A stretch of 64,000 nucleotides of DNA, taken from contig JBAQFC010000001.1 of assembly GCA_049287045.1 (NCBI GenBank), forward strand, positions 67,309 to 131,308. Direction: 5' to 3'. Both the position numbers and the translations under genes were made by a program. The notes beneath the pieces were generated by a model. It made no database searches and was not told the DNA's origin. It was given only the letters and a program-made list of their open reading frames with translations. Origin of the DNA: Minisyncoccia bacterium (GTDB lineage: Bacteria > Patescibacteriota > Minisyncoccia > Phycocordibacterales > UBA9973). Shown piece by piece: positions 15,095-52,000 of the stretch. Numbering within the stretch: position 1 is the first letter of the stretch; each line of letters starts with the position of its first letter.

Positions 15095-15131
15095 AAGTTT
15101 TTTTATTAAAAAAATATGATACAATAAATAT

Positions 15132-30784: not shown

Positions 30785-31501
30785 ATGCCTGAAATAATAC
30801 CCGCAGTCCTTACAAAAAATTACGATGATTTAAAAAATAAAATAGCACTTGTACGTGGAGTTACTCCAATAGTGCAGGTGGATATTTGTGATGGAGTTTA
30901 CACTCAAAATTATACTTGGCCTTTTCGTTCGACAGGATCAGATAGAGAAGTAGCTGAGTTGGATTTTCATGCACAAGACATTTTAGGTGAGCGCGAAGGT
31001 CTTCCTTTTTGGGAAGATATTGAATTCGAGTTGGACTTGATGGTGATGGATGCTGTAGATAATTTTGATTTTTATATGAAGTTTGGACCCAAGAGAGTTG
31101 TTTTCCATCTTGAGGCACAAAGAGATTTAGATTCTTTTAGAGATTTTCTAGAAGGTATGGATATGTATATTAGAGAGACGATACAGGTGGGTGTGGCAAT
31201 AAAACCAGGTACACCATTGGAAAATATTTTACCAATCGTTCCTTTCATTGATTTCGTACAATGCATGGGTATTGAAAAAGTTGGTTTTCAAGGACAAGAT
31301 TTTGATGAACGTGTTTTAGACCAAATAAAAAATTTGAAAGAAAAATTTCCAGAGCTTACTGTTAGTGTTGATGGGGGAGTCAATGTAGATACAGCTCAAG
31401 AACTTGTGAGTGCTGGTGCAGATAGATTAGTCATCGGTAGTGCTATTTTTAATACCAGTGACATCATCGGTACTGTTGAGATGTTTGAGAATTTGGTATA
31501 A
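30785..31501 (+). CDS. rpe: Ribulose-phosphate 3-epimerase-like TIM-barrel protein
   Basis: N-terminal I.PAVL...VDICDG and C-terminal VDGGVNVDTAQELVSAGADRLVIGSAIF motifs. It sits within the pentose-phosphate operon. Confidence 0.65.
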   Translation: MPEIIPAVLTKNYDDLKNKIALVRGVTPIVQVDICDGVYTQNYTWPFRSTGSDREVAELDFHAQDILGEREGLPFWEDIEFELDLMVMDAVDNFDFYMKFGPKRVVFHLEAQRDLDSFRDFLEGMDMYIRETIQVGVAIKPGTPLENILPIVPFIDFVQCMGIEKVGFQGQDFDERVLDQIKNLKEKFPELTVSVDGGVNVDTAQELVSAGADRLVIGSAIFNTSDIIGTVEMFENLV

Positions 31502-31510
31502 TAATACTAA

Positions 31511-35761: not shown

Positions 35762-37303
35762 ATGTCTAAAAAGATAATCTTTCTTTTGGTAGTTTTATTT
35801 TTATTTTCTAGATCTCATCTAGTTTTTGGTAGTCCCGTGATAAATGAATTGATGTATGATCTAGATGGTGCTGATATTGATTGGGTGGAAATTTACAATC
35901 CGAATAGTGAAGATGTTGATTTAACAAGCTTGAAACTTTTAGTTAGTAATTCGACTTCCAATCATGGAATAGTCAAACATTCTGGTTCAGAAATTCTTCA
36001 TCAAGGTGAGTACGGTATCATCGTGCCAAGTTCAGATATTGAAGCTTTTACAAACAAGTGGGGGAACTCGGGTAATATTTTTACCGCGAGTTTTTCTTTG
36101 CCCAATGAGACCGAAAAAGTTGAAATAAATAATGGAGACAAAACTTCTTCTTTGTCTTCGGTCACTTATAATTCCACGCAAGGAGCTTCGGGTGATGGTA
36201 ATTCCTTACAGCTGATAAATGGTACATGGAAAGCTGCTTTACCGACGCTCGGGTCTACAAATAATATTTCAGTTTCTACTATATCGTCCACTTCAACAAC
36301 TTCTTCCAATAGTTCAGTATCGAATAGTTCAAACAACGAGAGTTCTTATGTTCAAAATACTTCGACAATAACAAAAACTAAAATATCTGAAGAGCCTAAA
36401 ATCAAGACAAAAATTCTTTCTAAGAATTTAGTCTTTGCAGGTGTACCAGTTGAGTTTCAAGTAAAGACGACAGGGTATTCAGGTGAGACACTTTCCTCTG
36501 GAAAATATTTTTGGAATTTTGGTGACGGAGATTCTAGAGAAGCCAGTGGAACAGATAGATTTACCCATGTATATGCTTATTCAGGTGAATATGTCGTGTC
36601 TCTGGAATATTATATGAATGTTTATATTTCAGAACCAATTGCAGTTGATAAGATTACGATCAAGGTAGTACCAATACAGGTATCAATATCAAAAGTTGGA
36701 AATGAAAAAGATTTTTTTATAGAGCTTTCCAATAGTTCTGAATATGAGATAGATATTTCTAAATGGATTCTTTCTTCAGGGGAAAAGAAATTTATTTTTC
36801 CTAAAAACAGTATTATTATGCCGAAAAGATCAATAATACTTTCAGACAAGATTACGCAATTTGTTTCAAGTGATGCGAGAAATTTGAAATTAGTTCTCTC
36901 GACAGGTGAAGTTGCTTATGACTACGGTGTTTCATTGGCACCAATCGAAGTTGTAGTAAAAAATGAGATTTCCGTACAAGCCCCAGCCCCAGTTTTAGAA
37001 AAAACTACAATAAATATAAAAACAATAGAACCTGTCCAAAGTATTTCACAAAGTAATACAAGTGAGGATAAAAATATAAAAATAGAAAAAAATGTTTCTG
37101 TACCAGCTGTACAAAAAGCTAGCAAAAATTTATCAGCCTCCGCCGTAGAGAGTGGTGTGTTGCCGGGTAGTTCAAAGAATTTATATCTTTCTTTTATTGG
37201 ACTAGTTGTTTTTCTTGGGTTTAGTGCGGGTAGTGTTTATTTTATTCGTCGGAATAGAGTTGCCTTAGAAGACGGTGAAGATTTTGAAATAATCGATGAA
37301 TAA
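35762..37303 (+). CDS. Lamin-tail-domain (LTD) surface protein with a C-terminal TM anchor
   Basis: Signal peptide; LTD signature SPVINELMYDLDGADIDWVEIYNPNSEDVDLTSLKL; Ser-rich linker; C-terminal hydrophobic segment plus RRNR. Confidence 0.65.
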   Translation: MSKKIIFLLVVLFLFSRSHLVFGSPVINELMYDLDGADIDWVEIYNPNSEDVDLTSLKLLVSNSTSNHGIVKHSGSEILHQGEYGIIVPSSDIEAFTNKWGNSGNIFTASFSLPNETEKVEINNGDKTSSLSSVTYNSTQGASGDGNSLQLINGTWKAALPTLGSTNNISVSTISSTSTTSSNSSVSNSSNNESSYVQNTSTITKTKISEEPKIKTKILSKNLVFAGVPVEFQVKTTGYSGETLSSGKYFWNFGDGDSREASGTDRFTHVYAYSGEYVVSLEYYMNVYISEPIAVDKITIKVVPIQVSISKVGNEKDFFIELSNSSEYEIDISKWILSSGEKKFIFPKNSIIMPKRSIILSDKITQFVSSDARNLKLVLSTGEVAYDYGVSLAPIEVVVKNEISVQAPAPVLEKTTINIKTIEPVQSISQSNTSEDKNIKIEKNVSVPAVQKASKNLSASAVESGVLPGSSKNLYLSFIGLVVFLGFSAGSVYFIRRNRVALEDGEDFEIIDE

Positions 37304-37364: not shown

Positions 37365-37415
37365 GCGTCGCGCTTCAATGGACGATTGCGCGACATGATT
37401 TCGCTAAATCAAAAA
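37365..37415 (+). promoter_or_regulatory. Conserved hairpin-containing leader motif GTCGCGC-N13-GCGCGAC-ATGATTT(C/T)GC(T/A)AAATCAAA, copy 1
   Basis: About 85% identical to 48954-49001, which lies upstream of the giant gene. Both copies contain the 7-bp stem GTCGCGC/GCGCGAC. Confidence 0.5.
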
Positions 37416-37446
37416 TCAAATGTTTAAAAACTTTTTACTTAAAAAA

Positions 37447-37635
37447 ATGCTTCGTCTCCAAGGTGTACCAGAAGCGCAGATCGATATGGTTATCAATATG
37501 ATGGAGAAAGATCCAGAGCTCTTCAAGAAAATTGCGGCTGAAGTCCAAGAAAAAATAAAAAAGGGGATGGATCAGAATGCCGCTTCAATGGAAGTAATGC
37601 AAAAGTACCAGGAAGAATTAAAAAAGCTAGCTTAG
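37447..37635 (+). CDS. Small helical hypothetical protein. The ORF opens at 37420.
   Basis: About 62 aa, K/E-rich. Confidence 0.3.
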   Translation: MLRLQGVPEAQIDMVINMMEKDPELFKKIAAEVQEKIKKGMDQNAASMEVMQKYQEELKKLA

Positions 37636-37657
37636 ACTATCTTTAATCTTCAGAAAA

Positions 37658-37688
37658 AGAGCCCTATAAATAGGGCTCTTTTTGTTCT
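37658..37688 (+). terminator. Rho-independent terminator
   Basis: AGAGCCCTA-TAAA-TAGGGCTCT followed by TTTTTGTT. Confidence 0.75.
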
Positions 37689-37775
37689 TGACATATATAC
37701 TGTAGTATGCTATACTTTGTGCATAGTTTAATTATTTTGTTCATCTAAAAATAAGTCTCAAGGAGGGGCTTCAAA

Positions 37776-38279
37776 ATGAGAAAAAAAATTATTATCGCAA
37801 TCACCGCATGTGTTGCAGTTGCAGGCTTAGCACTACTTAATGTTTTTAATGCTAATGCTAATGCTGGTTCTGGCTCAGCTAAAACATCACATGTCAAAAA
37901 ACCTGTGCAAACAGGAACAGGAACAGGAATGATTTACCGAACCAATTCAGTAACTTACCCATTGGAAAATGGAAAGTTGTTAACTGTAAAGACAACCACA
38001 CCATATATAGATGTGGTGCTGCCGGCAAAGGACACATTCTTTGTTCAAAGAAAAGAAACCTTTAAAAAGGTTATGGCAAATTACACCGACTGCAAAGGCA
38101 CTCCACAGGAATATGAAAAAACTGTCGTGGGACCTGCGCAAATAAAGTTGGTTAAGCTTCGTTTAGCTGGGAGAACAATCACTGTTCCGTTACATAAACT
38201 TGAGAAAAAAGAATATGTGACATCGGACAAACCTGCACAGCTCTGTGAAGCGACCATAGTTACGCTGAAGTATAAATAA
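37776..38279 (+). CDS. Secreted hypothetical protein
   Basis: A strong SD sequence AAGGAGGGG lies 6 nt upstream. There is a signal peptide, and two Cys residues could form a disulfide. Confidence 0.5.
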   Translation: MRKKIIIAITACVAVAGLALLNVFNANANAGSGSAKTSHVKKPVQTGTGTGMIYRTNSVTYPLENGKLLTVKTTTPYIDVVLPAKDTFFVQRKETFKKVMANYTDCKGTPQEYEKTVVGPAQIKLVKLRLAGRTITVPLHKLEKKEYVTSDKPAQLCEATIVTLKYK

Positions 38280-38300
38280 TTTTTTTCAAAATTCATCTTG

Positions 38301-38337
38301 ATAGCACCTGAATAATTTTGGGTGCTATTTTTTTTGT
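38301..38337 (+). terminator. Rho-independent terminator
   Basis: ATAGCACC-N12-GGTGCTAT followed by TTTTTTTT. Confidence 0.7.
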
Positions 38338-38358
38338 TCCAAATTAGAAATTTATTAT

Positions 38359-38634
38359 TTATTGCACAGTGTCCGGTATTTTTATATCTGAGGAGTTTAC
38401 TGGTAGGTTTAATTTTTTTTCTACTAGCAGATATCTGGTAATATCGAGACCTTGGACATCTTCGCCTTTACTTTCGGTAAAAATTTTATTTACATTTTTT
38501 ACAATAAAACCCGTTGAATAAAAAAACAAGACTACTGTTATAACAAGAAACAAAAAAATAACACCTAAATAAATTAGATCGATACGTTCTATTTTTCTTG
38601 AAATTTTTGTAATGTTTGTGTCTTTCGGGTCCAT
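38359..38634 (-). CDS. Small single-TM protein, the last gene of the minus-strand pilus-assembly operon
   Basis: 91 aa with a central TM helix. Confidence 0.3.
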   Translation of the reverse strand: MDPKDTNITKISRKIERIDLIYLGVIFLFLVITVVLFFYSTGFIVKNVNKIFTESKGEDVQGLDITRYLLVEKKLNLPVNSSDIKIPDTVQ

Positions 38635-38638
38635 AATA

Positions 38639-39199
38639 TTATTGAGATTTTTCTGTTATTAATGTTGCTTTGTATGATATAGAACATGTTCCTGTCCATC
38701 CGGATTTTTCTTGTGATGAAATATTTAAACTTTCTATTTTAGTAAAATACGGCATGCTCTCGAATTTTTGTAAATAATTTGAAAAATTATGGACATTTGT
38801 CGTTAGACTATTTGAATATGCAATTGTTGAAAGAGGGAATGCTTCTGAAGCTGCCAGTGATACTGGTGTTTCAAAACGATAGGATTGCGACACTCCATTA
38901 CTAGATGCAAGGTTGTCTAGTGCATTTATAAATGTAGAAATATTATCTGAAGGTAGGAAAGCATTACTTATCAGAACATCATTATTTCCTACTATTTGTG
39001 CATCGTGTTTGATTACAGAAAGAAGCTCAGTTCTTTTTTTAAGTTCTGTCTCGAGTTTGTTATTGAAAACAATATTGTCAGTGACAGATTCTATCTCTCT
39101 TTTTATGAAAAAAATTATTAAAATAGTAACAAGAATGACACCCAGTGAAATAAGTGCGTTACGTCCGATATACATTAATAAATTTTTTGATGTAAACAT
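38639..39199 (-). CDS. PilO-like type IV pilus assembly protein
   Basis: 186 aa with an N-terminal TM followed by a coiled coil, positioned downstream of the pilM/N-like gene. Confidence 0.4.
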   Translation of the reverse strand: MFTSKNLLMYIGRNALISLGVILVTILIIFFIKREIESVTDNIVFNNKLETELKKRTELLSVIKHDAQIVGNNDVLISNAFLPSDNISTFINALDNLASSNGVSQSYRFETPVSLAASEAFPLSTIAYSNSLTTNVHNFSNYLQKFESMPYFTKIESLNISSQEKSGWTGTCSISYKATLITEKSQ

Positions 39200-39200
39200 A

Positions 39201-40658
39201 TTATTTATAGTACAACATACTTGGGTCTTTAAGATGAAATGAAATTGAAAATGGAATATCTGCTTTTTGTTCCAGGTTTGTAATAGGTAAATCTACCTCA
39301 GTAAAATATGTAGATGCTTGAAATGATTTTTTGAATTGATTAAGAGTATCACGATTTTTGGCAGTACCGGTTACAAACATCATATCACTTAATGATGGTG
39401 CTCCAAAACTCGATATTGTGATTCCTGGAATAACGCGAGAATTGATTTCGTCAATCAAGATACTCCAGTTGGGTGTGTTGGACAAAATAGATTGAGAGAC
39501 AAGGGTCAGAGAATTTACTTTTTTTATCAAGGATTCTTTTTGGATTATATCTGACGTAACAGGGAATGTAGAAAGAATAGAACTTTCATTTTGAATTATT
39601 TGTGATACTGAAAAAATATAAAGATAAGCTGCAATAAAAGTAAACAAAAAGAATAAAGATACTACTATCAACAAGTTGCGAGTAAGTTTTGTGAATGTTT
39701 TTATATTGTGGTATTTGTAAGTTTCGGCAATCCCAACAGGTAGTAAACTTATTTGATCGTCTTGTCCTTGTGAGATTTCTCCACGCACTACCGCACCGAC
39801 AGGGATGAGCCATTTGGATTGTGGTTCCAAGTTGGAAATATTTTCCAAATATTTTAAGAATTTGTCTCTGATTGTTGTTTCTGTAAAAGAAACTTCATGA
39901 ATTGTTTCTTTGAGTTCAGATTCGAGTGAATTCTTTATTTTGTTTGTCTCATCTTTCAAGAAATTTTCTTCTTTAATAAAGAGAGCTGGAAGCGTTCTGG
40001 AAAATTGAAGAATATTATCTTTCACTGTAAAGATGGTCACGCTGTCCTGATTCTTTTTTGTTAACAAACTCAATTCTCCTGGTTGTAGTTTTGCTGATCG
40101 AGCAATACTTGCGATATGAGATTCAAGAGCAAAAGTATTCACCCCGGCTTCTTCCAGAGTTTTGATATAGTCGTCTGCGATATTTTTAGGAATCGTAGAA
40201 ACGAGAACTTTGTTGGTATCACCAGAACCATCTGTATCCTCCCATCCTATATACACAGTGTCTCTCTTAAAAGGGAGTTGGAAATCAATCGCGAGGTCTA
40301 TTGCTTCTTCTAGATGTAAATTAGTGATAGTTTTAGGGAAAGGAAAAATATGAGAATAAATTTTGTCTTCTGGTATGGAAATAACAGCATAACTTCCGTA
40401 AAGTTTTTCTCTTTTCCAGATGTCCTTTATAGTTTTTTTGAAAAGTTCTTTATCTACTATCGCCCCATTTGATATTATATTTTCAGGTATTGATTCTTCT
40501 ATTAGAATAAGTTCGTTTTCTAAATTATCGGTAATACTTTTTAATATTTGTTTTGTTGCTTTTTTCTTTGGACGGAAATAAGCAATGCGTATATTTAAGT
40601 CGCTGATTTCAACTCCAGTAAAATACTTTTTCTTTGTTAGAAGATTTAAAATGTTCAC
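39201..40658 (-). CDS. PilM-like actin-fold domain fused to a TM plus PilN-like periplasmic region
   Basis: 485 aa. The N-terminal 320 aa are cytoplasmic (..FTGVEISDLNIRIAYF..), followed by a single TM (LLIVVSLFFLFTFIAAYLYIF) and a periplasmic tail. Confidence 0.45.
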   Translation of the reverse strand: MNILNLLTKKKYFTGVEISDLNIRIAYFRPKKKATKQILKSITDNLENELILIEESIPENIISNGAIVDKELFKKTIKDIWKREKLYGSYAVISIPEDKIYSHIFPFPKTITNLHLEEAIDLAIDFQLPFKRDTVYIGWEDTDGSGDTNKVLVSTIPKNIADDYIKTLEEAGVNTFALESHIASIARSAKLQPGELSLLTKKNQDSVTIFTVKDNILQFSRTLPALFIKEENFLKDETNKIKNSLESELKETIHEVSFTETTIRDKFLKYLENISNLEPQSKWLIPVGAVVRGEISQGQDDQISLLPVGIAETYKYHNIKTFTKLTRNLLIVVSLFFLFTFIAAYLYIFSVSQIIQNESSILSTFPVTSDIIQKESLIKKVNSLTLVSQSILSNTPNWSILIDEINSRVIPGITISSFGAPSLSDMMFVTGTAKNRDTLNQFKKSFQASTYFTEVDLPITNLEQKADIPFSISFHLKDPSMLYYK

Positions 40659-40896
40659 GATGTTTTTATTATATCAAGTTTTATATTTTGATGCTATATA
40701 ATTTTTTTTGATTCTGCATTTTCCCCTGTCCCCGGTTTAGGGGATTTCCCCTAAACCGGGTATCGGGGAAAGTGTCAGAGATACTACAAGTTATCCACTA
40801 TTAGGTTTACTTATTTGTTTTTTAAAAAAACTTCTGATATAATTTAGGCATAAAGGTTTTAATAGATTATTAATTTTATTTAAAAGTATAAATTTT

Positions 40897-41622
40897 ATGA
40901 ATATGAATTTTGTGAAGAAAAATAAAAATCGTGGTTTCACTTTGCTTGAGCTCTTGATCGTTATCGCGATCATCGCTATTTTGTCTGTTGCACTTGTTCT
41001 AGTTTTGAACCCAGCAGAAACTTTAAAGAAGGCTCGAGATGCTCAGCGTATCTCTGACCTTGCTACACTTAAAACTGCGATAGGACTTTATTTGACGAGT
41101 GTCTCCCCAGCATACTTGGGTGGAGTGGCTGATAACAATTTCTGTAAACCTACTCCAGCAACTGCATGGGGCGACGGTTCGTTCACATACAAGATTTCTT
41201 ACTCGACTCCTATTGCCGTCCCAATCACTGATGCAGTCGAAGATGGTAGTACTGGTGTTATCAAAAGACAAGCAGCTGTGAATCCAAGTCTTACAGATGG
41301 TACTGGTTGGATTCCTGTTAAGTTTGATAACATTACAGGAGGATCTCCAATTTCAAACATTCCTCTTGATCCAACAAACAATATCGTAAGCACTTTGAGT
41401 ACTGCTGCTTCTGTAAGAAGTGATGCTCTAGTCTATCGTTATGCATGTGCAATAACTCCACTTACTTTTGAAATCGATGCTCAACTAGAAAGTGATGCTT
41501 ATACTGTTACTGACGACAAAAGAGCAAGTGATGGTGGAAATAGTACACTTTATTATGAAGTTGGTACAAGTCTATCAATCATGACTGCTGCTTCTCCTTC
41601 TGCAGTTGGAACAGATATCTAA
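40897..41622 (+). CDS. Type IV pilin, paralogue 1
   Basis: Prepilin leader KNRG|FTLLELLIVIAIIAILS, with Glu at +5. Confidence 0.8.
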   Translation: MNMNFVKKNKNRGFTLLELLIVIAIIAILSVALVLVLNPAETLKKARDAQRISDLATLKTAIGLYLTSVSPAYLGGVADNNFCKPTPATAWGDGSFTYKISYSTPIAVPITDAVEDGSTGVIKRQAAVNPSLTDGTGWIPVKFDNITGGSPISNIPLDPTNNIVSTLSTAASVRSDALVYRYACAITPLTFEIDAQLESDAYTVTDDKRASDGGNSTLYYEVGTSLSIMTAASPSAVGTDI

Positions 41623-41643
41623 TCATTTAGCTAATAAAATAAA

Positions 41644-41676
41644 AACACCTCGGTTTTACACTGAGGTGTTTTTATT
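41644..41676 (+). terminator. Rho-independent terminator
   Basis: ACACCTCGG..CTGAGGTGT followed by TTTTTATTTT. Confidence 0.7.
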
Positions 41677-41768
41677 TTATTAGATTTGTCTCAAAAATAC
41701 TTGCTTGTTTTTTTTATATTTAGTAAAATTATATAAGCTATTATTATTTTATAAAAAACTATATATTT

Positions 41769-42449
41769 ATGAATATGAATTTTGTGAAGAAAAATAAAAA
41801 TCGTGGTTTCACTTTGCTTGAGCTTTTGATCGTTATCGCGATCATCGCTATTTTGTCTGTCGCACTCGTTCTAGTTTTGAACCCTGCAGAAACTTTGAAG
41901 AAGGCCCGAGATGCTCAGCGTATTTCTGACCTTAATACAATCAAAACTGCAATCGGACTTTATATGACGACAGTAGCACCGGTGTATTTAGGAGGAACAT
42001 CCTCCAACGCCGAATGTCAGGCTGTGACAGGTACTTGGGCAGGTACAAACAAGATTTTTTATTCTCTTCCTGTTGCTAGTGTTATTACTGACGTGGTATT
42101 GGATGGTGTTGGTGGTGCTCTAAAATTGCAGGTTGCAACTCCAAGTCTTACAGACAGTACTGGTTGGATTCCTGTTGATTTCGGTAATATTGCCGGAGGT
42201 TCTCCTATCTCAAAAATTCCTGTTGATCCAATCAACACTATTACTGCTCTAGGTGCAGTTGCAAGTACAGATCTAGTATATCGTTATGGATGTGCTCAAT
42301 CCCCATTAGCTTTCGAGATTGATGCTCAATTAGAAAGTATCGCTTACACTGTTACTACTGATATGAGAGCGACTGATGGTGGTAATAATGCAGGTGTATA
42401 TGAAGATGGTACTGACTTGTTGATATTTGGAACAGGCGCAGACTTCTAA
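41769..42449 (+). CDS. Type IV pilin, paralogue 2
   Basis: The first 60 aa are nearly identical to paralogue 1, and the C-terminal globular part diverges. Confidence 0.8.
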   Translation: MNMNFVKKNKNRGFTLLELLIVIAIIAILSVALVLVLNPAETLKKARDAQRISDLNTIKTAIGLYMTTVAPVYLGGTSSNAECQAVTGTWAGTNKIFYSLPVASVITDVVLDGVGGALKLQVATPSLTDSTGWIPVDFGNIAGGSPISKIPVDPINTITALGAVASTDLVYRYGCAQSPLAFEIDAQLESIAYTVTTDMRATDGGNNAGVYEDGTDLLIFGTGADF

Positions 42450-42471
42450 TTTTACTCAACTTTTTATTAAA

Positions 42472-42507
42472 AAATACCTCGGCTTTACGCTGAGGTATTT
42501 TTTTTAT
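42472..42507 (+). terminator. Rho-independent terminator, a homologue of the one at 41644
   Basis: AATACCTCGG..CTGAGGTATT followed by TTTTTTTT. Confidence 0.7.
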
Positions 42508-42520
42508 ATAATAGTTTACT

Positions 42521-43159
42521 ATGATACTAAATTTTATATTTTCACATTTAAATACGATTGCTTTAGGGGTATGGGTGGCATTTTTGGTGGTTATTGCTAT
42601 TCGTTTTTTCCGACCAGCTTGGTTGAGAAATATTTCTTATTCAAAACTTATTTTAGTTGCTATAGGATTAAATATTTTTTATGGTTTGTTTGTGAGTTGG
42701 GGACAATATCATGTATGGGCATCAGCCAATGATTTTACCAGATCACTTGTAAATTTACCTTTACCAAAAGAGGTGCCAATGTCTTATCTTTTTGAATGGA
42801 CAAGACCATTATTTCAGAATCATTTAGGATATTTCCTGTATTATATTATAGGACGTGTTTGGTTAAATATTTTCGTCTCATTTTTAATTTCAGGAGCAGT
42901 TTATCTTCTATTTAGAATTTGGAATTCTTACCGTGGTGGTTTTATAGAAAAAGGTCCTGAATTATTATTAATTTTGATGTTGATTTCTGGTTTTCCAGAT
43001 ATTATGATTTTAATTCCTCTTGGTTTTATTTTTGCAATTTTTTTGTTTACTTTTTACTATTTTAAAAAGGGTCACAAGAATGTAGAAATTGAACCAGCTT
43101 TTATTTTTGCAACTCTTTTCGCTTTATTATTTACAAATATTATTTTGAGTTTGATTTAG
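42521..43159 (+). CDS. Polytopic membrane protein of unknown function in the pilus locus
   Basis: 212 aa with about 6 TM helices. Confidence 0.4.
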   Translation: MILNFIFSHLNTIALGVWVAFLVVIAIRFFRPAWLRNISYSKLILVAIGLNIFYGLFVSWGQYHVWASANDFTRSLVNLPLPKEVPMSYLFEWTRPLFQNHLGYFLYYIIGRVWLNIFVSFLISGAVYLLFRIWNSYRGGFIEKGPELLLILMLISGFPDIMILIPLGFIFAIFLFTFYYFKKGHKNVEIEPAFIFATLFALLFTNIILSLI

Positions 43160-43176
43160 TAAAAGATGCCACTTGA

Positions 43177-43221
43177 CCCACATGTCCGACATGTGGGATC
43201 CCCACATGTCGGACATGTGGG
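43177..43221. repeat. Two tandem copies of the 21-nt palindromic repeat CCCACATGTC(C/G)GACATGTGGG immediately upstream of the pilB promoter
   Basis: Copies at 43177-43197 and 43201-43221, separated by 3 nt. Same family as 19465-19485. Confidence 0.75.
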
Positions 43222-43272
43222 TTTATGAAGGTTTGTCTTTTATATTTTGCTGTAAATTGGTATAATCTCTTC

Positions 43273-44982
43273 ATGCACATAAGCGAAGAAAAATTAAAGT
43301 CGATTTTACTTGAATCGGGTCTCGTCACTGATGACGATTTTAATTTAGCTCGCGAAGAATCTAAAAGAAGTGGTCAGACCATTTCTGATGTTTTGATCGG
43401 TAATGAAAAAATTACCGAAGATTACCTTGTAGAACTTTTAGCTCCATATTATGGTGTTCCGATTATCAATCTTAAAAAAGAACAGATTGATCCTGCTGCT
43501 TTGGAGTTGATTCCGGAAGTTTATGCAAAATCAAAGAACGTAATAATGTTTGGTTATGATAAAGAAAAGGGGATAATAAAGCTGGCAATGCTTGATCCTC
43601 TTGATTACGATACTATTGAATACATCCGAATAAAATTCAACGCTTGGGTGGAAGCATACCTGACGACTTACTCAAGTTTGCGTTATGGTTTTAGACAATA
43701 TAAACAAAAAATAAATGTAGGCTTCGAACAACTTATTTCAGAAAACATAGAACAGTCTCTTTCTCTTGCCAATGAAAAAGATTTATCAAAGACAGCGACT
43801 GCTGTCCCTATCGTCACTATTCTAGATAATATTATCGAGCAAGCAATAGCCTTGAATTCTTCTGATATTCACTTTGAGCCACTTGAAAATGCTCTTCTTG
43901 TTCGTTTTCGTATTGATGGTGTTATGTCAGAAATTTTAAGTTTGCCCCAAGCGATAGCTTCGATCCTCGTCGCTCGTGTAAAGATTCTCGGCAATCTGCA
44001 GATTGATGAACACCGCGCTCCTCAAGACGGACGTTTTAGTTTCAAAATGCAAGATGGCACAAACATCGATGTTCGCGTGAATATCATGCCTATTTTTCAT
44101 GGTGAAAAAGTTGAAATGAGATTACTAAAAAGTTCTATTCGCCCGCTCTCTTTAAAAGATCTTGGTTTTTCAGATATTGCGAGTAGAGTTCTCGGTGAAG
44201 AAATCAAAAAACCTCACGGAATGATTCTTGTGACTGGACCGACTGGTCACGGTAAGACTACGACTCTTTACGCAATATTACATATTTTAAATACACCTTT
44301 GGTGAACATTACGACGATTGAAGACCCTATCGAGTACGAGTTTCCAAGAGTAAATCAAACACAAGTAAATACAAAAACAGGAATCACTTTTGCAAACGGT
44401 CTGAGGTCTCTTCTTCGTCAAAATCCAGACATAATCATGATCGGAGAGATACGTGACAATGAAACAGTTGAGATTGCGGTTCAGGCTGCCTTGACGGGTC
44501 ACCTTGTTTTATCTTCACTCCATACCAATGATGCTCCGTCTGCTATTCCTCGTCTGCTCGACATGAAGGCTCCAGCCTTTTTACTTTCTTCCACTATCAA
44601 TGCGATCATCGCCCAGCGTCTTGTCAGAAAAATCTGCACACAATGTATCGGATCATATGAGATAACACCTGAAATAAATATTACCATAAGAGAACAGGTC
44701 AAAATTTCTGGAGGTGATGAAAAAAATATACCCAAGACTCTTTATAAAGGACGCGGTTGTAATGTTTGTGGAAATTCAGGATATTTTGGACAAATAGGAA
44801 TCTTTGAAGTTATGGTTATAACCGAAGGTATTCGTGAGATGATTATCGCTGGCGCAGAAGTATCAACATTGAGAAAGACAGCCATTGCCAATGGTATGAT
44901 TTCTATGTTTATGGATGGTTTGGATAAAGTTGAAAAGGGGATTACAACAATAGAAGAAATTACTCGTGTGGTTAATGAATAA
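43273..44982 (+). CDS. pilB: Type IV pilus assembly ATPase PilB (GspE family). The ORF opens at 43225.
   Basis: T2SSE N-domain, then Walker A GPTGHGKTT, a Walker B region and the C-terminal tetracysteine motif CTQC...CNVC. An extended -10 TGGTATAAT lies at 43258-43266. Confidence 0.9.
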   Translation: MHISEEKLKSILLESGLVTDDDFNLAREESKRSGQTISDVLIGNEKITEDYLVELLAPYYGVPIINLKKEQIDPAALELIPEVYAKSKNVIMFGYDKEKGIIKLAMLDPLDYDTIEYIRIKFNAWVEAYLTTYSSLRYGFRQYKQKINVGFEQLISENIEQSLSLANEKDLSKTATAVPIVTILDNIIEQAIALNSSDIHFEPLENALLVRFRIDGVMSEILSLPQAIASILVARVKILGNLQIDEHRAPQDGRFSFKMQDGTNIDVRVNIMPIFHGEKVEMRLLKSSIRPLSLKDLGFSDIASRVLGEEIKKPHGMILVTGPTGHGKTTTLYAILHILNTPLVNITTIEDPIEYEFPRVNQTQVNTKTGITFANGLRSLLRQNPDIIMIGEIRDNETVEIAVQAALTGHLVLSSLHTNDAPSAIPRLLDMKAPAFLLSSTINAIIAQRLVRKICTQCIGSYEITPEINITIREQVKISGGDEKNIPKTLYKGRGCNVCGNSGYFGQIGIFEVMVITEGIREMIIAGAEVSTLRKTAIANGMISMFMDGLDKVEKGITTIEEITRVVNE

Positions 44983-45023
44983 CCACATATCGGACATGAG
45001 GGAATCTCATGTCCGATATGTGG
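44983..45023. repeat. 41-nt perfect palindrome CCACATATCGGACATGAG-GGAAT-CTCATGTCCGATATGTGG, a variant of the CCCACATGTCSGACATGTGGG family
   Basis: It starts 1 nt after the pilB stop codon. Its half-sites resemble the 21-nt repeat. Confidence 0.7.
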
Positions 45024-45053
45024 ACGACGTGTTATTAATGAATAATAATTTTT

Positions 45054-46262
45054 ATGATATATACATACAAAGCATACAATAAAGATAATAAAATAATAGA
45101 TGGAGAATATGAAGCATCTTCCAACCAAGAAGTCGTAGAATATTTGGCTAAAATTTCTCTAACACCGGTCTCTGTTCATGCGATAAGTACAAGCAAAAAA
45201 ATTCTATCAATCGAACTATTTGACAGCATCACATCTATTGATATTGTTTTTCTAATACGTAACCTGGCGACCACAATCAAAGCGGGATTATCTATTGTTG
45301 AATCCATTGATATCTTGATCAAAGATACCAAAAAAAATTCAATGAGAAAAATCCTTCAAGGGGTCAAAGCCAAGATTGAAAACGGACAGACTCTTTCTTC
45401 TGGTTTTGAAGCTTACAAAGAATCTTTTCCACCGATTTTTATCGGTATGGTAAAAGCTGGTGAGGTCTCCGGTCAGCTTGGTAAATCTTTGTCAGAACTC
45501 GCTCGTTATCTTTCAAAAGAATATACACTTCGAAGTAAAATAAAATCAGCTCTTACTTATCCGATTATTCTTCTTATTGCTTCAGCTTTGGTTGTGACAT
45601 TGATGTTGGTTTTCGTTCTTCCAAAGCTTACTCAATCATTTGCTCAAAGTGGAGTGACACTACCTTGGATTACCAAAGCTTTTCTTTTTGTTTCTCAGAT
45701 GCTTACCTATAGTTTTATTTTGGACTTGGTTGTTCTCGGAGCGATAGTATTTTTCTTTACTTATTTCCGTAAGACAGCGACAGGAAAAAAGTTTTTCTTT
45801 TTTGTTACTTCACATACACCAGTCGCAAAGGATTTGATAAAGAAGATAGCTGTTGTTCGTTTTGCTCATACCTTTGGTAATCTGATAGGTAGTGGTCTGT
45901 CTGTTGTTGAATCTCTTTCAATCTCTTCACAGTCGATAAACAACCAGAGTTATACTGATGCGATTGATAAATCAATCGAGGATATCAAAAATGGTATCTC
46001 TGTTTCAGAAGCGCTTAGTAAATATCCGAAACTTTTCCCCAGTCTTTTGATAAGTCTTATTATGGTTGGTGAGCGTACTGGATCCCTCCAGGAAATTCTT
46101 ATGACTTTTGCAGATTTTTATGAAGAAGAAGTTGATAATACATTAAAAGAATTGACTGCAGTCTTGGAACCTGTTTTGCTTATCATTATGGGTCTGATGA
46201 TTGGTGCTATTGCTGTATCGATAATCCTTCCTATTTATCAATTAGTCGGACACTTTATTTAA
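45054..46262 (+). CDS. pilC: Type IV pilus inner-membrane platform protein PilC (GspF family)
   Basis: 402 aa with two T2SSF repeats and three TM segments. Confidence 0.85.
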   Translation: MIYTYKAYNKDNKIIDGEYEASSNQEVVEYLAKISLTPVSVHAISTSKKILSIELFDSITSIDIVFLIRNLATTIKAGLSIVESIDILIKDTKKNSMRKILQGVKAKIENGQTLSSGFEAYKESFPPIFIGMVKAGEVSGQLGKSLSELARYLSKEYTLRSKIKSALTYPIILLIASALVVTLMLVFVLPKLTQSFAQSGVTLPWITKAFLFVSQMLTYSFILDLVVLGAIVFFFTYFRKTATGKKFFFFVTSHTPVAKDLIKKIAVVRFAHTFGNLIGSGLSVVESLSISSQSINNQSYTDAIDKSIEDIKNGISVSEALSKYPKLFPSLLISLIMVGERTGSLQEILMTFADFYEEEVDNTLKELTAVLEPVLLIIMGLMIGAIAVSIILPIYQLVGHFI

Positions 46263-46263
46263 T

Positions 46264-47574
46264 ATGAAGTACTTCCGTGGCCGTCATGTCCTGAGCTTGT
46301 CGAAGGGTTTCACGATGCTTGAATTGTTGATCACTACCGCAATAGTGGTGACAGTAGCTTCAGCAGGTATTGGTTTTTATATAAATTATGGCAAGAGTGT
46401 CGACCTAAATTCTGTTGTTCAAATTTTAGCTTCTGATTTAAAACAAGCACAATCGAGATCTATGATAGGTGAGGGAGGTTTCAAATGGGGAGTGCATCTA
46501 GTGAATGGAACAAAAGATTATTATGAAATATTTTCTACCCCGGATGTTTATAGTAATGGTGCAAAAGTTATCCTCTCAACAACCTATCTATCCAGTGGTG
46601 TTACTTTTTCCAGTCCATCATCCGGTACGTCTTCGGATATTATTTTTAATAAAATATCAGGAGGAACAACTCCGTCTTTTGTTGGATTAACTTCAGGTAG
46701 TATTACTGAAAGAATCGGTCTTTCAAGTATTGGAAGTATTGAAATTGCTGAGGTTGCAATTAAAACGTTGATTGTCGCAGGCGGCGGTGGTGGCGGTGGT
46801 AATTGTAATTCTTGTGGTGGTGCAGGCGGCGGTGGTGCCGGTGGTTTGGTTTATGTACCATCGCTTGTTGTCACAAGTGGTTCAATGTCAGTCCTTGTTG
46901 GTGCAGGAGGTGCGGGTGGTGCCAATAATACCAATGGCTCATCGGCCAATGGAGTTGCTGGAACAAATTCATCATTTGGTGGTTATATTGCAACGGGTGG
47001 CGGAGGTGGCCGACCACAGAGTGGTGTCGCGGGTGGCAATGGAGGTTCTGGTGGTGGAGGCTCAGGTGGTGGTAGTCCTGTTGCTGGTGCTGGTGGTCTT
47101 GGTATATTTGGACAAGGAAATAATGGTGGTGCAGGTATTAGTTCACCTCATGGCGGAGGCGGCGGCGGAGGTGCTGGTGGCCCAGGCAGTACAGGTAGTA
47201 CGAAAGCTGGTGGTATTGGTCTTTCTTATTCTCTTAGTGGTTCAAGTATTTATTATGCTGGCGGCGGTGGTGGTGGTACATACACTTCAGGTACTGGAGG
47301 TACAGGGGGATTGGGTGGTGGTGGTAATGGTGTAAATAGTACTACTAACAATGGTTATGGTTTTTCTGGAACAGTGAATACTGGCGGTGGTGGCGGGGGA
47401 GCCAATGGAGCGCCCGTTGGTGGAGGTGGAGGAACTGGTGGTTCAGGAATAGTCATAATTAGTTACTCGACAGCTTCTGGTATAACAGCTACCGGTGGTA
47501 CAATAACTACAGTCGGTGCAAACACAGTTCACACATTTACTTCAAGCGGGACTTTTATTGTCACAGTACCGTAG
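46264..47574 (+). CDS. Pilin-like protein with a prepilin N-terminus and a 250-aa glycine-rich low-complexity domain
   Basis: KGFTMLELLITTAIVV prepilin signal, then a GGGGGGGNCNSCGGAGGGGAGG...-type region encoded by (GGT/GGC)n, and a short C-terminal beta-rich tail. Confidence 0.55.
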   Translation: MKYFRGRHVLSLSKGFTMLELLITTAIVVTVASAGIGFYINYGKSVDLNSVVQILASDLKQAQSRSMIGEGGFKWGVHLVNGTKDYYEIFSTPDVYSNGAKVILSTTYLSSGVTFSSPSSGTSSDIIFNKISGGTTPSFVGLTSGSITERIGLSSIGSIEIAEVAIKTLIVAGGGGGGGNCNSCGGAGGGGAGGLVYVPSLVVTSGSMSVLVGAGGAGGANNTNGSSANGVAGTNSSFGGYIATGGGGGRPQSGVAGGNGGSGGGGSGGGSPVAGAGGLGIFGQGNNGGAGISSPHGGGGGGGAGGPGSTGSTKAGGIGLSYSLSGSSIYYAGGGGGGTYTSGTGGTGGLGGGGNGVNSTTNNGYGFSGTVNTGGGGGGANGAPVGGGGGTGGSGIVIISYSTASGITATGGTITTVGANTVHTFTSSGTFIVTVP

Positions 47575-47580
47575 AATTTT

Positions 47581-47621
47581 GACCAGTGCTTTAGGCGCTC
47601 GGAGCGCCTAAAGCACTGGTC
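47581..47621. repeat. 41-nt perfect palindrome GACCAGTGCTTTAGGCGCTC-G-GAGCGCCTAAAGCACTGGTC (REP-like, with no U-run)
   Basis: Perfect 20-bp arms. It shares the 12-mer CCAGTGCTTTAG with the hairpin cluster at 63766-63786. Confidence 0.7.
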
Positions 47622-47640
47622 TAGTCCATACTAAATTTTC

Positions 47641-48315
47641 ATGAAAAATTTTTTCAAAAATAAAAAAATATCTTTAAACAAAGGAGCACTCTTGCTCGAA
47701 CTTTTGATTGTTATTTCATTGCTCGCGGTGATTCTTTCTTTCGGAATCAATGCGATGTTTTTGAGTTTAAAAAGTAACAGAGTCTCTGGTGAACGCGACA
47801 TTGCGAATGCATTGGCGACAGAATCCTTGGAAGCAGTGAGAGCGACAGTCGAAGAAAATTGGCAAAATATTTATGCTCCCTCTGGAATAGTAAAAGGAAC
47901 CACACATTATTACCCAAAACAATCTCTAGGAAAGTGGGTCCTTACTACCGTATCAGGAGACGGAGTTATCACCATCGGTGGTGTTGTTTTTACCAGATAT
48001 GTCATCATCGATGATGTGTGTCGAGACAACTCAACTCGTGAAGTGACAGGTGTCACACCTTGTACTATTCCGAGTACTCAATCAGATGATCCGAGTACAC
48101 AGAGAGTCTCATCAATAGTGTCTTGGCCAGGTGCAGATCCAGTCACAATGTACGAATATTTTTTTCGTTGGAAAAATAAAGTATGTACTCAAGGCGGATG
48201 GGTTGCAGGAGTACCAGGAAATTCTACGCAAGATTGCACCGGTGCTGGCACCAATTATGATTCAAAAGAAGACACAGTTTTTATCGATCCAAATGGTTCA
48301 TTTAAGCTTCAGTAA
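47641..48315 (+). CDS. Minor pilin or pseudopilin
   Basis: Prepilin motif KG|ALLLELLIVISLL with Glu at +5. Confidence 0.6.
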   Translation: MKNFFKNKKISLNKGALLLELLIVISLLAVILSFGINAMFLSLKSNRVSGERDIANALATESLEAVRATVEENWQNIYAPSGIVKGTTHYYPKQSLGKWVLTTVSGDGVITIGGVVFTRYVIIDDVCRDNSTREVTGVTPCTIPSTQSDDPSTQRVSSIVSWPGADPVTMYEYFFRWKNKVCTQGGWVAGVPGNSTQDCTGAGTNYDSKEDTVFIDPNGSFKLQ

Positions 48316-48347
48316 ATTATTTTAGCTAAGTTGGTTAAGTTGATTAT

Positions 48348-48587
48348 ATGTGGTATGATAAAGTTATGAAAAATATTCTTCAATTTTCAATTTCAAAAGG
48401 GGAAAATAATTACATAGCGCAAGCTGTTGGTTTTCCTATTTTTACTCAAGCAGAAAGTTTAGATCAGCTTATTGAAAATATAAAAGAAGCTACGGGTTTA
48501 CATTTCAAAGATGAGGATTTATCTGAATACGGATTTGTTCCTAAGCCATCTTTATTGATAAATTTCGAGGTTCCTCAGTATGCCTAA
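48348..48587 (+). CDS. hicB: HicB-family antitoxin (UPF0150-like)
   Basis: 79 aa; ...YIAQAVGFPIFTQAESLDQLIENIKEATGLHF... RNase-H-like fold pattern. It overlaps hicA by 8 nt. Confidence 0.55.
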   Translation: MWYDKVMKNILQFSISKGENNYIAQAVGFPIFTQAESLDQLIENIKEATGLHFKDEDLSEYGFVPKPSLLINFEVPQYA

Positions 48588-48822
48588 GTTGAAAGTTTTA
48601 TCTGGAAAAGATTTAATTGATATTTTTGCTTCTTTTGGTTTTCATATTATTGGTCAAACTGGCAGTCATGTAAAAATGCGCTGCCATAAAGATAACAATA
48701 AACAAACACTCACCATACCTCTACATAAAGAAATCGATAAAGGTCTTTTGAAAGCAATTTTTAATCAAGGTTCTATGTATATTTCAGAACAAGAGTTAAA
48801 GAAATATTTCTTTACAGAATAA
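48580..48822 (+). CDS. hicA: HicA-family mRNA interferase toxin
   Basis: 80 aa; KVLSGKDLIDIFASFGF...GSHVKM....TIPLHKEIDKGLLKAI. Confidence 0.65.
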   Translation: MPKLKVLSGKDLIDIFASFGFHIIGQTGSHVKMRCHKDNNKQTLTIPLHKEIDKGLLKAIFNQGSMYISEQELKKYFFTE

Positions 48823-48827
48823 AAAAA

Positions 48828-48855
48828 GCGCCCTCCTAGTAAGGAGGGCGCTTTC
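48828..48855 (+). terminator. Terminator hairpin with a weak U-run
   Basis: GCGCCCTCCT-AGTA-AGGAGGGCGC followed by TTTC. Confidence 0.5.
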
Positions 48856-48953
48856 AATCTTATCCACTGTTTTACTTGTTGCAGTTAATTATTAAAAGAA
48901 GTAAAATATAGGGGAGTATTCTACCGATTTTTCTGCAGACTTTTTTCAGACAT

Positions 48954-49001
48954 GAGTCGCGCTTCAACGGACACTGCGCGACATGATTTTGCAAAATCAA
49001 A
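48954..49001 (+). promoter_or_regulatory. Conserved hairpin-containing leader motif, copy 2, lying 40 nt upstream of the giant gene
   Basis: GAGTCGCGCTTCAACGGACACTGCGCGACATGATTTTGCAAAATCAAA; see 37365-37415. Confidence 0.5.
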
Positions 49002-49041
49002 TTATTTATTTTTAATGTTCTCAAGTAGCTAGTAAAGTCGA

Positions 49042-52000
49042 ATGAAAAAAATTATAAAAAAAATAAATTTAAGTCGGTTTAATTTATTCTTGGTAGTTCT
49101 ACTTCTTGGAGTAGTTTCTTTTTCATTCGTGAAACTTGTTTTTGCATCCACTCCGGATACCACTAAACCGAATCCTGGACAAGCATGGAATGAGATCGGC
49201 AACGGAAGTTTTCAGATCAGCGGACCTACTGGTGGACCCACAGTTCCCAAAACTTTTATTTTTCCTGATGTTGATAATACTTATGTCATCACTGCACCGA
49301 CTCCGGTTGGAACAACAGGACAAGTTCTTACTTCCACAGGAGCTCTCGGTCAACAATCCTGGGCGACACCAACTTTCGGTAATGTCAATGGTACTGGTAC
49401 GACAAATTTTATAACCAAGTGGAACGATGCTGTCGGTACTTTAGTAAATTCTTTAATTTTTGATAATGGAACAAATGTCGGTATCGGAACAACAGCACCA
49501 GCTACACCTTTTCAAGTTGGACAAAGTGGTACAAATAAAAATTCAAGATTTTGGGGGAACATAGATGTAAATGGAGGAGGTTCATTAACTTTTGGATCTG
49601 GAGATTCTTCTATCGGATATCCTTCTGGTTATAATTTGGCTTTCAATACTTACAACGGAAGTCTGACCGAAAAAATGAGAATCACGTCCGTTGGTAATGT
49701 TGGTATTGGAACCACGAATCCATCAATGTCACTAGATGTAAAAGGTTCAGGTGCTGGACACGTTATAATGGGTAGTTGGGCTTCAAATGGAGCTTACGGA
49801 GTACTTAGTCTGAATGGTTTAAATGATACAGGTTCCAATTTTTATAGTGCAGCAGGAGGTCCTCTTTATATTAATCGTCCAACAGGACAAGGTCTATATT
49901 TTAGAGAAAATAATGCTGATCAAATGACCATTCTAAATGGTGGCAATGTTGGTATTGGAACAGTAACTCCAGGAGCAAAATTGGACGTAGAAAATCTTTC
50001 TGCTGGAATCAACGAAGGGATTCGATTATCTCATGCAAATGCTTATGATGCAGGATCCAAGATTTCTTGGTGGATGGATAATGCTTCAGAAAGTGCAAAT
50101 ATCAAAAGTGCATGGTATCCGACTCCTACATCGAAATCGTATATTGCACTCTCTACCTATGGCCCGTCATTACTTGAGAGAATGAGAATAAATGGTGATG
50201 GTAATGTCGGTATTGGATCAACAGCACCAAACGAAAAGCTGGATGTTAAATCCGGTAATATTTCTATTTCTGATTCTGCTGGAAACGAACGCGGAAGATT
50301 TTGGAGTACAGATACAGGTGGTTCACCTTATGAAACAGGATTACAAACAAGTAATTATCACCTTGTGTTAGATGCTTCCGGTTCTGGACAAAATAATATT
50401 ATTATGCGAACAGGTTCAAGTACTGTTGGTACTGGTACTGAAAAATTAAGAATTACAGGTGCAGGTCTTGTCGGTATTGGAACATCAGCTCCTGCACAGC
50501 TTCTTCAAGTTGGTAGTGCGACTTCAACAGCCAATCAGTATTCAAGAATTGATTCCGCGGCAGCATATGATGCAGGATTAGAACTCGCATCTGCTGGTGC
50601 ATCAAAATGGACTATTTACAGACCAGGAGGTACAAATGATTTGAGGTTTTATGATGCTACTGCTACTGCAGGAGATAGGCTAACTATAAAAGCAAGCACT
50701 GGTAACGTCGGCATAGGCACCACAGCACCCACTGCAAAATTAGAACTCGGAGGTACGTCAGGTGTAGACGGTTTGAAATTCCCTGACGGAACTCTTCAGG
50801 TTACCGGAGCTTCTAGTGGAGTCAAATTACTTTCGAGTGGTACTGGCCTGACAATCAACGGAAATTCTGTAACGAGAACTGCAGTTAATGCTTGGGATGC
50901 TGAAGTATATAGTCAAGACGGTTATTCTGGTGGAGCCTATGCGTCTTATGTAGTTCGCAATCTGACTGGTGTTTATTATATGGTTGGTTTGAATACAGAC
51001 CCGACTTTAAATCCTAGTTACACTAGTATAGATTATGCTTGGTATGTGCTCAATAGTACAAGTGCTTCGATTTATGAAAGTGGTACCAACATTGCTCCTG
51101 CAATCACTACTATCGCTGTAGGTGATGTGCTTGCTGTGACTTATGATGGATCAAATATCAGATATCTCCAAAACGGAGTCGTAAAAAGAACAGTGCCGGT
51201 CATTATAACTCTTCCTCTTTATTTAGATTCTTCTTTCCACAGTGGAGCTGCGACACCGGATATTAGCAATATTCAATTCGGACCTATGAGTACTGGTTCT
51301 CAATGGGCTGCAAACGGAACAAGTATTTATTACAACGGTGGTAATGTTGGAATTGGAGTTACTGCACCAAGCAATAAATTAGAAATCAGTGGAGGAGATC
51401 TTATGGTTAACGGAGCTGGAGCTTCAAAAAGCCTATACTTAAATTATGATAAGACTAGCTTTCCAAATTATGCGAGTTCATTAACTCAAACAGGTGCTGC
51501 TGATGTTTCAGGTACGCGTGGACTTGTAATAAATGCTAACAGTGGTCAAGCAGTAACAAATTATGGTATTGGTTTTGCGATTGATGGGGCTAATAAAATG
51601 TTCCTCCAAGGAAGTAGCGGCAATGTCGGTATTGGTACTACAGCACCAACATCTAAATTAGAGGTATCAGCTGGAAATATTCAAATGAGTGATGGGTATC
51701 CAGTAACTTGGGGTGATACAGTCACACCTAGAGGTCAAATAGTTACTTTTTCAGCTTCTCCTGATAGAGGCTTAAGATACACTGCACAACCAGGAGGTGT
51801 TGGATGGTTTGGAGTTCACGATTTTTATGCGGCTGACGGAGTTGCTGGAACTACACCTACATTGGCAATGAGAATAAAAGATGGCAAAGTCGGCATTGGA
51901 ACGTCGGCACCGGTTGGCAAACTTAATGTAGTCGCTGCTTCTTCTAATGTATCACAGTCTGGGCAAGCTATCGGTTTTGGAAGTACGGCAGTTCCATCTG

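Follow-up and report, generated by a model that had tools for sequence, protein, structure and literature searches.

What is a hairpin-forming sequence of about 45 nt doing at two otherwise unrelated places in a small, AT-rich genome? The question arises from a 64,000-nt stretch of a metagenome-assembled Minisyncoccia genome (assembly GCA_049287045.1, contig JBAQFC010000001.1, positions 67,309 to 131,308; hereafter the window), in which two near-identical sequences, here called copies 1 and 2, stand 11.6 kb apart, each upstream of an open reading frame (ORF). A preliminary description had taken them for a leader motif shared by two secreted-protein loci and had offered three options: a cis-regulatory RNA, an operator for a common regulator of surface proteins, or a small mobile or repetitive extragenic palindromic (REP)-like unit. 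We found that the last of these fits best and that a shared operator is unsupported. We lean towards reading the window sequences as copies of a family of miniature structured insertion elements that extends across the Patescibacteria, and on this reading both are lineage-specific insertions, most likely transcribed within leader RNA. They do not form a common regulator of secreted proteins.

The two sequences exist much as first described, with true borders about 2 nt inside those originally given, and the roughly seven differences reported between them were counted here as 6 substitutions and 1 indel. Their flanks fail to align, which bears out the earlier view of a discrete element with unrelated surroundings. 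Both lie on the + strand, and there is no third copy in the whole window: the covariance model R2, run with filters off, returned only copies 1 and 2 (scores in the table below), the runner-up reaching 14.7 bits. Chance expectation per window was 0.02 and 0.05 for the two halves of the unit and 0.00 for the stem pattern. The 7-bp GC stem is present in both copies, and the 13-nt loop that had been ascribed to both is found in copy 2, copy 1 having a loop of 14 nt. Behind this GC hairpin (P1), TGATTT-NNNN-AAATCA forms a second inverted repeat, so that two adjacent hairpins fold on either strand. The stretch ATGATTTYGCNAAATCA is a hairpin in its own right (P2), and its first loop nucleotides pair with the P1 loop. 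One of these loop–loop pairs covaries in the family, and the window holds one of each state, G:C in copy 1 and A:U in copy 2.

The leader position reported for both loci was also found. Copy 1 is placed between a gene for an LTD/PKD secreted protein (35762–37303) and a 71-aa ORF (37420–37635) whose start codon lies 8 nt past it, and a partial repeat of its tail in these 8 nt recreates the family-typical junction AAATCA-N-ATG. Copy 2 follows a HicAB pair, and a 4186-aa surface-protein ORF (49042–61602) begins 42 nt beyond the copy. The 11.6 kb separating them is a type IV pilus locus (PilM/N, pilins, PilB, PilC). Against Rfam, the whole window gave only a tRNA at gathering score, and a 181-nt region searched at E ≤ 10 gave only noise (at most 20 bits, against cut-offs of 40–64); ARAGORN likewise called a single tRNA-Gln in the window, away from the copies. 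No intrinsic terminator was called at either copy, the tail AUGAUUU... forming P2 and not a U tract. A weak match at 61656–61691, considered as a third copy, is actually a terminator plus a TTGACA promoter, and a sigma-54 promoter, a tRNA fragment and a CRISPR repeat were each dropped, their spacing or shape being unfit as judged from the sequence.

How widely does this unit occur? We scanned species-representative genomes with a pattern that fixed the loop and the tail and left both stem arms free, and obtained 44 loci where about 1 was expected by chance (our own calculation). Nearly all of their titles name Magasanikbacteria, Paceibacterota, Nomura-, Zambryski- or Taylorbacteria, Minisyncoccia or ‘Patescibacteria group’, and a few loci bear doubtful automatic taxon labels. 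A metagenome scan, in which the whole tail was left free, gave at least 120 loci, about 8 of them GC-rich chance matches. Pooled with the window, the scans yielded 131 distinct copies in 1.11 Mb, with hosts that are almost all Patescibacteria (the candidate phyla radiation, CPR). Neither pattern matched viral contigs. The family is apparently undescribed: our literature search turned up no report tying such repeats to Patescibacteria, nor the peptide that the unit encodes within genes (see below), and a search of a protein database with a concatenated query of that peptide returned only 4 candidates, none of them scoring.

Throughout the family the unit, 44–45 nt in length, is built of P1, one linker A, P2 and a 2-bp loop–loop pairing. 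P1 is a 7-bp GC-rich hairpin whose loop of 13–14 nt (14 nt in 26/131 copies) opens with UUCAAYGGAC; P2 is a 6-bp AU-rich hairpin, UGAUUU-YGNN-AAAUCA; and the C and R of the P1 loop pair with the Y and G of the P2 loop. For covariation we used the 71 copies whose tail lay outside the search pattern. Within this set 98% of cells form standard pairs, and the compensatory stem changes for which the preliminary description had proposed a covariance model were found family-wide. Three P1 pairs alternate between C:G or G:C and U:A, and three P2 pairs alternate to give UGAUUU/AAAUCA, UGAUUC/GAAUCA, UGAUCC/GGAUCA and UGGUUU/AAACCA. The nucleotide behind GGAC and the one that opens the P2 loop form a G:C pair in 42 copies and an A:U pair in 28 (other, 1), next to a neighbouring C:G pair that is invariant. 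None of 500 shuffles matched the observed value, and structures shifted by 1–3 columns fell to 22–42% paired. Nearly all 16 Watson–Crick combinations of the four variable pairs were seen, so the loop–loop pair cannot be put down to an artefact of two lineages. P2 arms differ compensatorily even between copies on one contig (L034, L009; L numbers denote loci). Together, the covariation supports a defined fold. Mismatches in the stems are rare (36/1560 pairs), and A.C (20) exceeds G.U (8) with no sense-strand excess of G.U, a departure from what selection on sense RNA alone predicts.

Larger rearrangements of the unit also occur, among them tandem P1 hairpins and duplicated tails; tail duplications like that of copy 1 are found in L015, L008, L058 and L059, and in the duplicated-tail variants the last tail always adjoins the ATG. 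Four metagenome loci (L068, L125, L154, L054) carry a variant ATTTYGNNAAATCA in which an extra hairpin and AARCTTGGYA separate the linker ATG from the tail, and the tail again abuts the start codon. Upstream of a glutaredoxin orthologue, L090 has CATGATTTTT...AAAAATCATG with no P1 hairpin, which looks like a decayed or variant copy.

Orthologous genes with and without the unit show that it is gained and lost as a discrete piece and that no target site is duplicated. Two thymidine kinase genes (L162 and L067, 80% amino acid identity) differ by a block of exactly 45 nt, neither flank being duplicated, and the same holds for other filled and empty pairs of 47–77% identity: UDG, UvrD, two Mur ligases, an aminoacyl-tRNA synthetase and a PALP enzyme. 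Copies in leaders are variably present upstream of dnaK, dnaJ, khpA, grx and ileS orthologues, and one ileS orthologue has its leader unit inverted. The unit occurs in either orientation, mostly sense, with some 20 intergenic copies pointing away from the next gene. It is also nested: a second palindromic repeat, AGAGGTCGGACCTCGG...GAGGACCGACCTCT, holds an identical 45-nt unit in its loop at seven different loci. This second family is itself GC-rich and has many loci in some metagenomes, its loop being either a short sequence or the full 45-nt unit (L066, L089, L104, L123, L128, L134 and L156; for example L156:1250–1330 and about 1400–1450).

The unit persists in two settings, either directly upstream of start codons that lack a Shine–Dalgarno (SD) sequence or, in its 45-nt form, in frame within conserved proteins. 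The second setting accounts for about 20% of copies. Of the sense copies, 27 lie in frame within conserved genes; they share one frame, and each has the 13-nt loop that gives 45 nt. They read as a stop-free insert of about 15 aa, G/R-R/H-A/V-S-M/T-D-x-A/T-R-H-D-F/S-A/V-K/E-S, typically G-R-A-S-M-D-G-A-R-H-D-F-A-K-S. That the coding copies all measure 45 nt, lack stop codons and keep to a single frame points to ordinary translation. Pfam matches run across the insert in thymidine kinase, UDG, UvrD, SecA, a ClpB-type AAA protein, two Mur ligases and iPGM, and further in PGK, TatD, RecG, a class-V aminotransferase, an RNase T-type exonuclease, a PLD enzyme and others. Stem changes recode the peptide (F/K versus S/E), which indicates that the constraint lies on the nucleic acid and not on the protein. 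In three orthologous genes the unit is antisense and occupies the sole stop-free antisense frame. The repeat explains the 15-aa inserts of ‘GRASMDGARHDFAKS’ type that recur among CPR proteins.

The first setting accounts for about 31% of copies. Forty-one of the 131 copies end between −1 and +6 nt from the start codon of a long ORF with no SD, 24 of them at exactly 1 nt. The genes that follow include dnaK, dnaJ, secE, rplV and rplF (both within one ribosomal-protein operon), ileS, ruvB, ftsW, truB, khpA, glutaredoxin and secreted proteins; the gene set as a whole has no coherent function and is mostly cytoplasmic housekeeping. Of 35 start-proximal copies, 9 have a −10-like hexamer whose end lies 3–5 nt before P1, and in these the unit seems to have come to lie between this box and the start codon. 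At +2 past the unit, A is present in 65–89% of copies. A leader peptide starting at the linker ATG was rejected: the change in loop length and the variable spacing destroy any family-wide common frame, the linker ATG being in frame with the gene start only at the 1-nt spacing, which is the commonest case. In the two window copies this ATG starts a 10-codon ORF (37395–37427, MISLNQKSNV; 48983–49015, MILQNQIIYF). Translational coupling was also rejected, an upstream stop codon seldom being adjacent, as was a replication-strand bias, GC skew merely tracking gene orientation.

Most genes of the window itself have no SD. Several instead have an extended −10 box, TGnTAnAAT, whose end lies 6–9 nt upstream of the ATG, as is expected of leaderless mRNAs (10688–10712, 15110–15134, 31489–31513, 42499–42523 and, on the − strand, 40658–40680). 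The gene at 37776, for which an SD had been reported, does have one (AAGGAGG) and is an exception among its neighbours.

The breadth of these settings leaves without support the link to secreted or surface proteins that the preliminary description had drawn. Elsewhere the unit precedes dnaK, dnaJ, secE, rplV, rplF, ileS, ruvB and grx, and lies in frame within UvrD, UDG, SecA, Tdk, Pgk and others. The orthologues of the window's 71-aa gene have no unit, and in four relatives whose pilus genes stand in the same order and whose PilB is 80–82% identical, the 98.8 kb of syntenic loci contained no copy. The preliminary description would have given way to a common REP sequence scattered with no relation to gene starts. 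The motif is in essence such a common repeat, untied to these gene classes, but its relation to gene starts is real, with a preference for sites just before start codons.

For an insertion element of this kind we propose that an enzyme acting in trans copies, or formerly copied, the unit as a folded single strand, and that this enzyme would read the shape of the hairpins together with the conserved loop. Since each hairpin closes on itself, folding would draw the 5′ and 3′ ends of the unit together, and with its ends thus joined the unit may little disturb the start site or the protein loop in which it lands.

Several observations weigh against a simple insertion element. All-versus-all clustering of 1839 nearby ORFs in 1.1 Mb revealed no transposase, integrase or HUH-type gene recurring beside the copies. 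Terminal inverted repeats are absent, the ends GTCGCGC... and ...AAATCA being non-complementary and both inverted repeats being internal hairpins, and no conserved target sequence was seen, the flanks showing just a weak G(C/G) at −2/−1 and A at +2. Copy number is low, at 2 per 64 kb in the window or about 1 per 30 kb. The invariance of the loop was built into the search, both patterns having fixed TTCAAYGGAC, and is not an independent finding; covariance-model matches with altered loops exist. The frequency of copies next to start codons is far above that of random intergenic insertion, and sense orientation is favoured about 3:1. The unit precedes secE in 5/5 loci seen, at 50–66% amino acid identity. 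Finally, retained orthologous copies are 84–96% identical where their 150-nt flanks are 45–81% identical; simple selfish DNA should decay, so the copies must each be under selection or be refreshed by conversion. The start-codon preference, the sense bias, the retention at secE and this conservation suggest a host-level function for some copies at least. The start-codon preference and the conservation in situ keep explanations at the RNA level and at the DNA level alive.

A possible, though clearly less probable, account is that the unit is a functional module unique to Patescibacteria, kept by purifying selection even inside essential genes. It would be either a structured start-site element independent of SD or the recognition hairpin of a system for mobilising or nicking single-stranded DNA. 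In the former case the compact fold would let ribosomes handle a leadered mRNA like a leaderless one.

It is somewhat doubtful, in our judgement, that the unit is instead primarily a cis-acting leader RNA, that is, a functional 5′-UTR or intercistronic module of which the coding and antisense copies are by-products. Such a module might substitute for the SD in ribosome loading, bring the AUG close to the 5′ end of the transcript in a genome whose starts are mostly of leaderless type, stabilise the 5′ end, or be a site for a conserved RNA-binding protein. Its architecture is indeed RNA-like, with a loop–loop pair and a T-loop-like UUCAA, and the SD-less start codon directly after P2 in nearly a third of the copies, the final tail held against the ATG in duplicated-tail variants, the scarcity of SD in the window, the sense bias, the deep retention before secE and the better conservation of copies than of their flanks all accord with it. 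So do the −10-like boxes before P1, although a box ending 3 nt before P1 means that transcription probably starts within the 5′ arm. However, the copies inside ORFs, some of them antisense, are conserved equally well, orthologous genes manage with no unit, one ileS leader has it inverted, and the downstream genes are functionally incoherent. G.U pairs are fewer than A.C mismatches, and the single-sequence folding energies of the window copies are unremarkable (z = −1.2 and −2.2).

That conservation is indifferent to orientation relative to the host gene, and that the stems are almost purely Watson–Crick with no preference for G.U, would be expected of a signal in DNA. Here the unit would be a non-mobile, genome-wide dispersed hairpin or cruciform, recognised in single-stranded or extruded DNA by some machine of the host and retained, wherever tolerated, through selection or biased conversion. 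The machine could be an HUH-type nickase or relaxase, or one of DNA uptake, recombination or replication. HUH enzymes have nick-site hairpins that such a GC stem with its conserved loop of about 13 nt resembles, and these organisms carry competence and type IV pilus genes. We nevertheless consider this unlikely: the density is low, the preference for sites before start codons and the sense bias are strong, strand choice is tied to gene orientation in GC skew, no candidate enzyme was identified, and the pattern of presence and absence looks like insertion and not like an ancient fixed signal.

Two further readings are contradicted by the data. An operator for a transcription factor co-regulating surface or secreted proteins could draw on P2 being a 16-bp palindrome and on both window copies preceding signal-peptide genes, and is very improbable given the compensatory changes in the P2 arms, within the contigs named above as in the family, which a fixed protein–DNA code would forbid, the mostly cytoplasmic housekeeping genes downstream with no apparent regulon, and the orthologous loci that have no unit. 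Least credible of all are attL/attR direct repeats around an integrated island of 11.6 kb, as two direct copies bounding 37.4–49.0 kb with a HicAB toxin–antitoxin pair at one end might suggest, for the interval is a core type IV pilus locus, syntenic in relatives with no copies, it contains no integrase, and the same unit stands singly at more than 100 unrelated sites.

The features of the two window copies are collected in the table. The candidate promoter upstream of copy 2, if used, would put the copy about 40 nt into the transcript.

Table. Positions of the two copies of the unit and of adjoining features in the window
Feature	Position	Strand	Details
Copy 1, whole unit	37367..37411	+	45 nt, 14-nt P1 loop; R2 70.9 bits, E 1.8e-16
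Copy 1, hairpin P1	37367..37394	+	Arms GTCGCGC 37367-37373 and GCGCGAC 37388-37394; loop TTCAATGGACGATT 37374-37387
Copy 1, linker A	37395	+	
Copy 1, hairpin P2	37396..37411	+	TGATTT 37396-37401, loop CGCT 37402-37405, AAATCA 37406-37411
Copy 1, loop–loop pairs	C37383:G37403, G37384:C37402	+	Backed by family covariation of P2 and pseudoknot
Partial tail repeat AAAATCAA after copy 1	37412..37419	+	By sequence inspection
Copy 2, whole unit	48956..48999	+	44 nt, 13-nt P1 loop; R2 70.7 bits, E 2e-16
Copy 2, hairpin P1	48956..48982	+	Arms 48956-48962 and 48976-48982; loop TTCAACGGACACT 48963-48975
Copy 2, hairpin P2	48984..48999	+	TGATTT 48984-48989, loop TGCA, AAATCA 48994-48999
Copy 2, loop–loop pairs	C48972:G48991, A48973:T48990	+	
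AT-rich 42-nt spacer from copy 2 to ATG of 4186-aa ORF	49000..49041	+	No SD
Weak candidate promoter TTGCAG-17-TAAAAT	48879..48907	+	Predicted only; under promoter-scan threshold

Some of the neighbouring genes deserve mention in their own right. The 71-aa helical protein downstream of copy 1 has no Pfam match and is one of a small family that is conserved among Patescibacteria; orthologues are present at L101, L039 and L016, and at each of these the gene shares its locus with a family-4 UDG gene. Towards copy 2, the protein encoded at 46264–47574 is pseudopilin-like: an N-terminal helix of methylation type leads into a very glycine-rich region (GGGGGG runs) that raises the local GC to 43%. The repetitive 4186-aa protein is followed by an FG-GAP/VCBS-repeat protein (61753–63675) that ends in a Por secretion-type C-terminal sorting domain (PF18962), unexpected in this group. 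In relatives (L165, L167, L169) a second PilB/PilC pair and a response regulator lie about 7–9 kb downstream of the first, and in the window the gene for the giant protein takes the side where relatives have this second pair. At the site in L165 that matches copy 2, after the last pseudopilin gene (L165:14880–14955), there are two tandem GAATTACCCAGTAGGT units, each then followed by a P2-like hairpin (TCATTTTGTTAAATGA, TGATTCTGATGAATCA) with no P1, which may be a related or remnant module.

Patescibacteria account for a very large share of bacterial diversity and are mostly uncultured; their genomes of about 1 Mb are under strong streamlining, and a folded 45-nt unit that persists there in leaders and in essential enzymes, better conserved than the surrounding genes, needs explaining. 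If mobile, it would be among the smallest known elements, superphylum-wide and with no identified transposase; if functional, it would bear on translation start where SD sequences are missing in Patescibacteria. In practice the unit can mislead gene callers at start codons, and it offers a compact sequence marker for Patescibacteria.

How does it compare with known systems? Small pseudoknotted leader RNAs, such as riboswitches of the preQ1-I type, are likewise about 45 nt, combine a hairpin with a short tertiary pairing and end at the start codon, whereas here the gene set is incoherent, there are coding and antisense copies and empty orthologous leaders, and no Rfam match was obtained. With riboswitches and leader RNAs as a class the unit shares a covarying fold, but not a consistent sense position before functionally related genes. 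DNA uptake sequences have a very high density and show no orientation bias, unlike the one copy per about 30 kb and the roughly threefold sense bias seen here. In yeast mitochondria, GC clusters and ‘byp’ elements are GC-rich hairpin insertions in a compact AT-rich genome, coding sequences included; byps, however, break the frame and ribosomes hop over them, whereas every coding copy here is 45 nt, stop-free and in a single frame. With classical miniature inverted-repeat transposable elements the unit shares presence and absence at orthologous sites, but it lacks their terminal inverted repeats and target-site duplication.

REP and IS200 elements are GC-rich hairpins with compensatory change that leave no target duplication and are mobilised in trans as folded single strands. 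The compensatorily maintained hairpin and the precise 45-nt indels lacking duplication place our unit near REP/REPIN–RAYT and IS200/IS605 elements. Unlike it, REPs are extragenic, number hundreds per genome and flank a RAYT gene; the present unit has few copies, some of them intragenic, and neither a RAYT- or TnpA-like neighbour in 1.1 Mb nor a conserved target tetranucleotide was found. Rickettsia palindromic elements (RPEs) are short palindromic repeats that carry no genes and lie between genes or, unusually often, in frame within unrelated housekeeping genes, to which they add a conserved peptide (PMC10969869). The 45-nt unit is also found in frame in unrelated conserved genes and also encodes a conserved peptide. 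Compared by description, RPEs differ in being about 100–150 bp and confined to one genus, Rickettsia, whereas our unit is 45 nt and spread over several candidate phyla or classes of Patescibacteria, and has in addition a two-hairpin fold with a covarying loop–loop pair, a concentration at start codons and a conservation above that of its flanks. It is RPEs and REP/RAYT elements that the 45-nt unit most closely resembles in its behaviour. It departs from what defines each of them in part, namely in size, host range, restriction to extragenic sites and an associated transposase.

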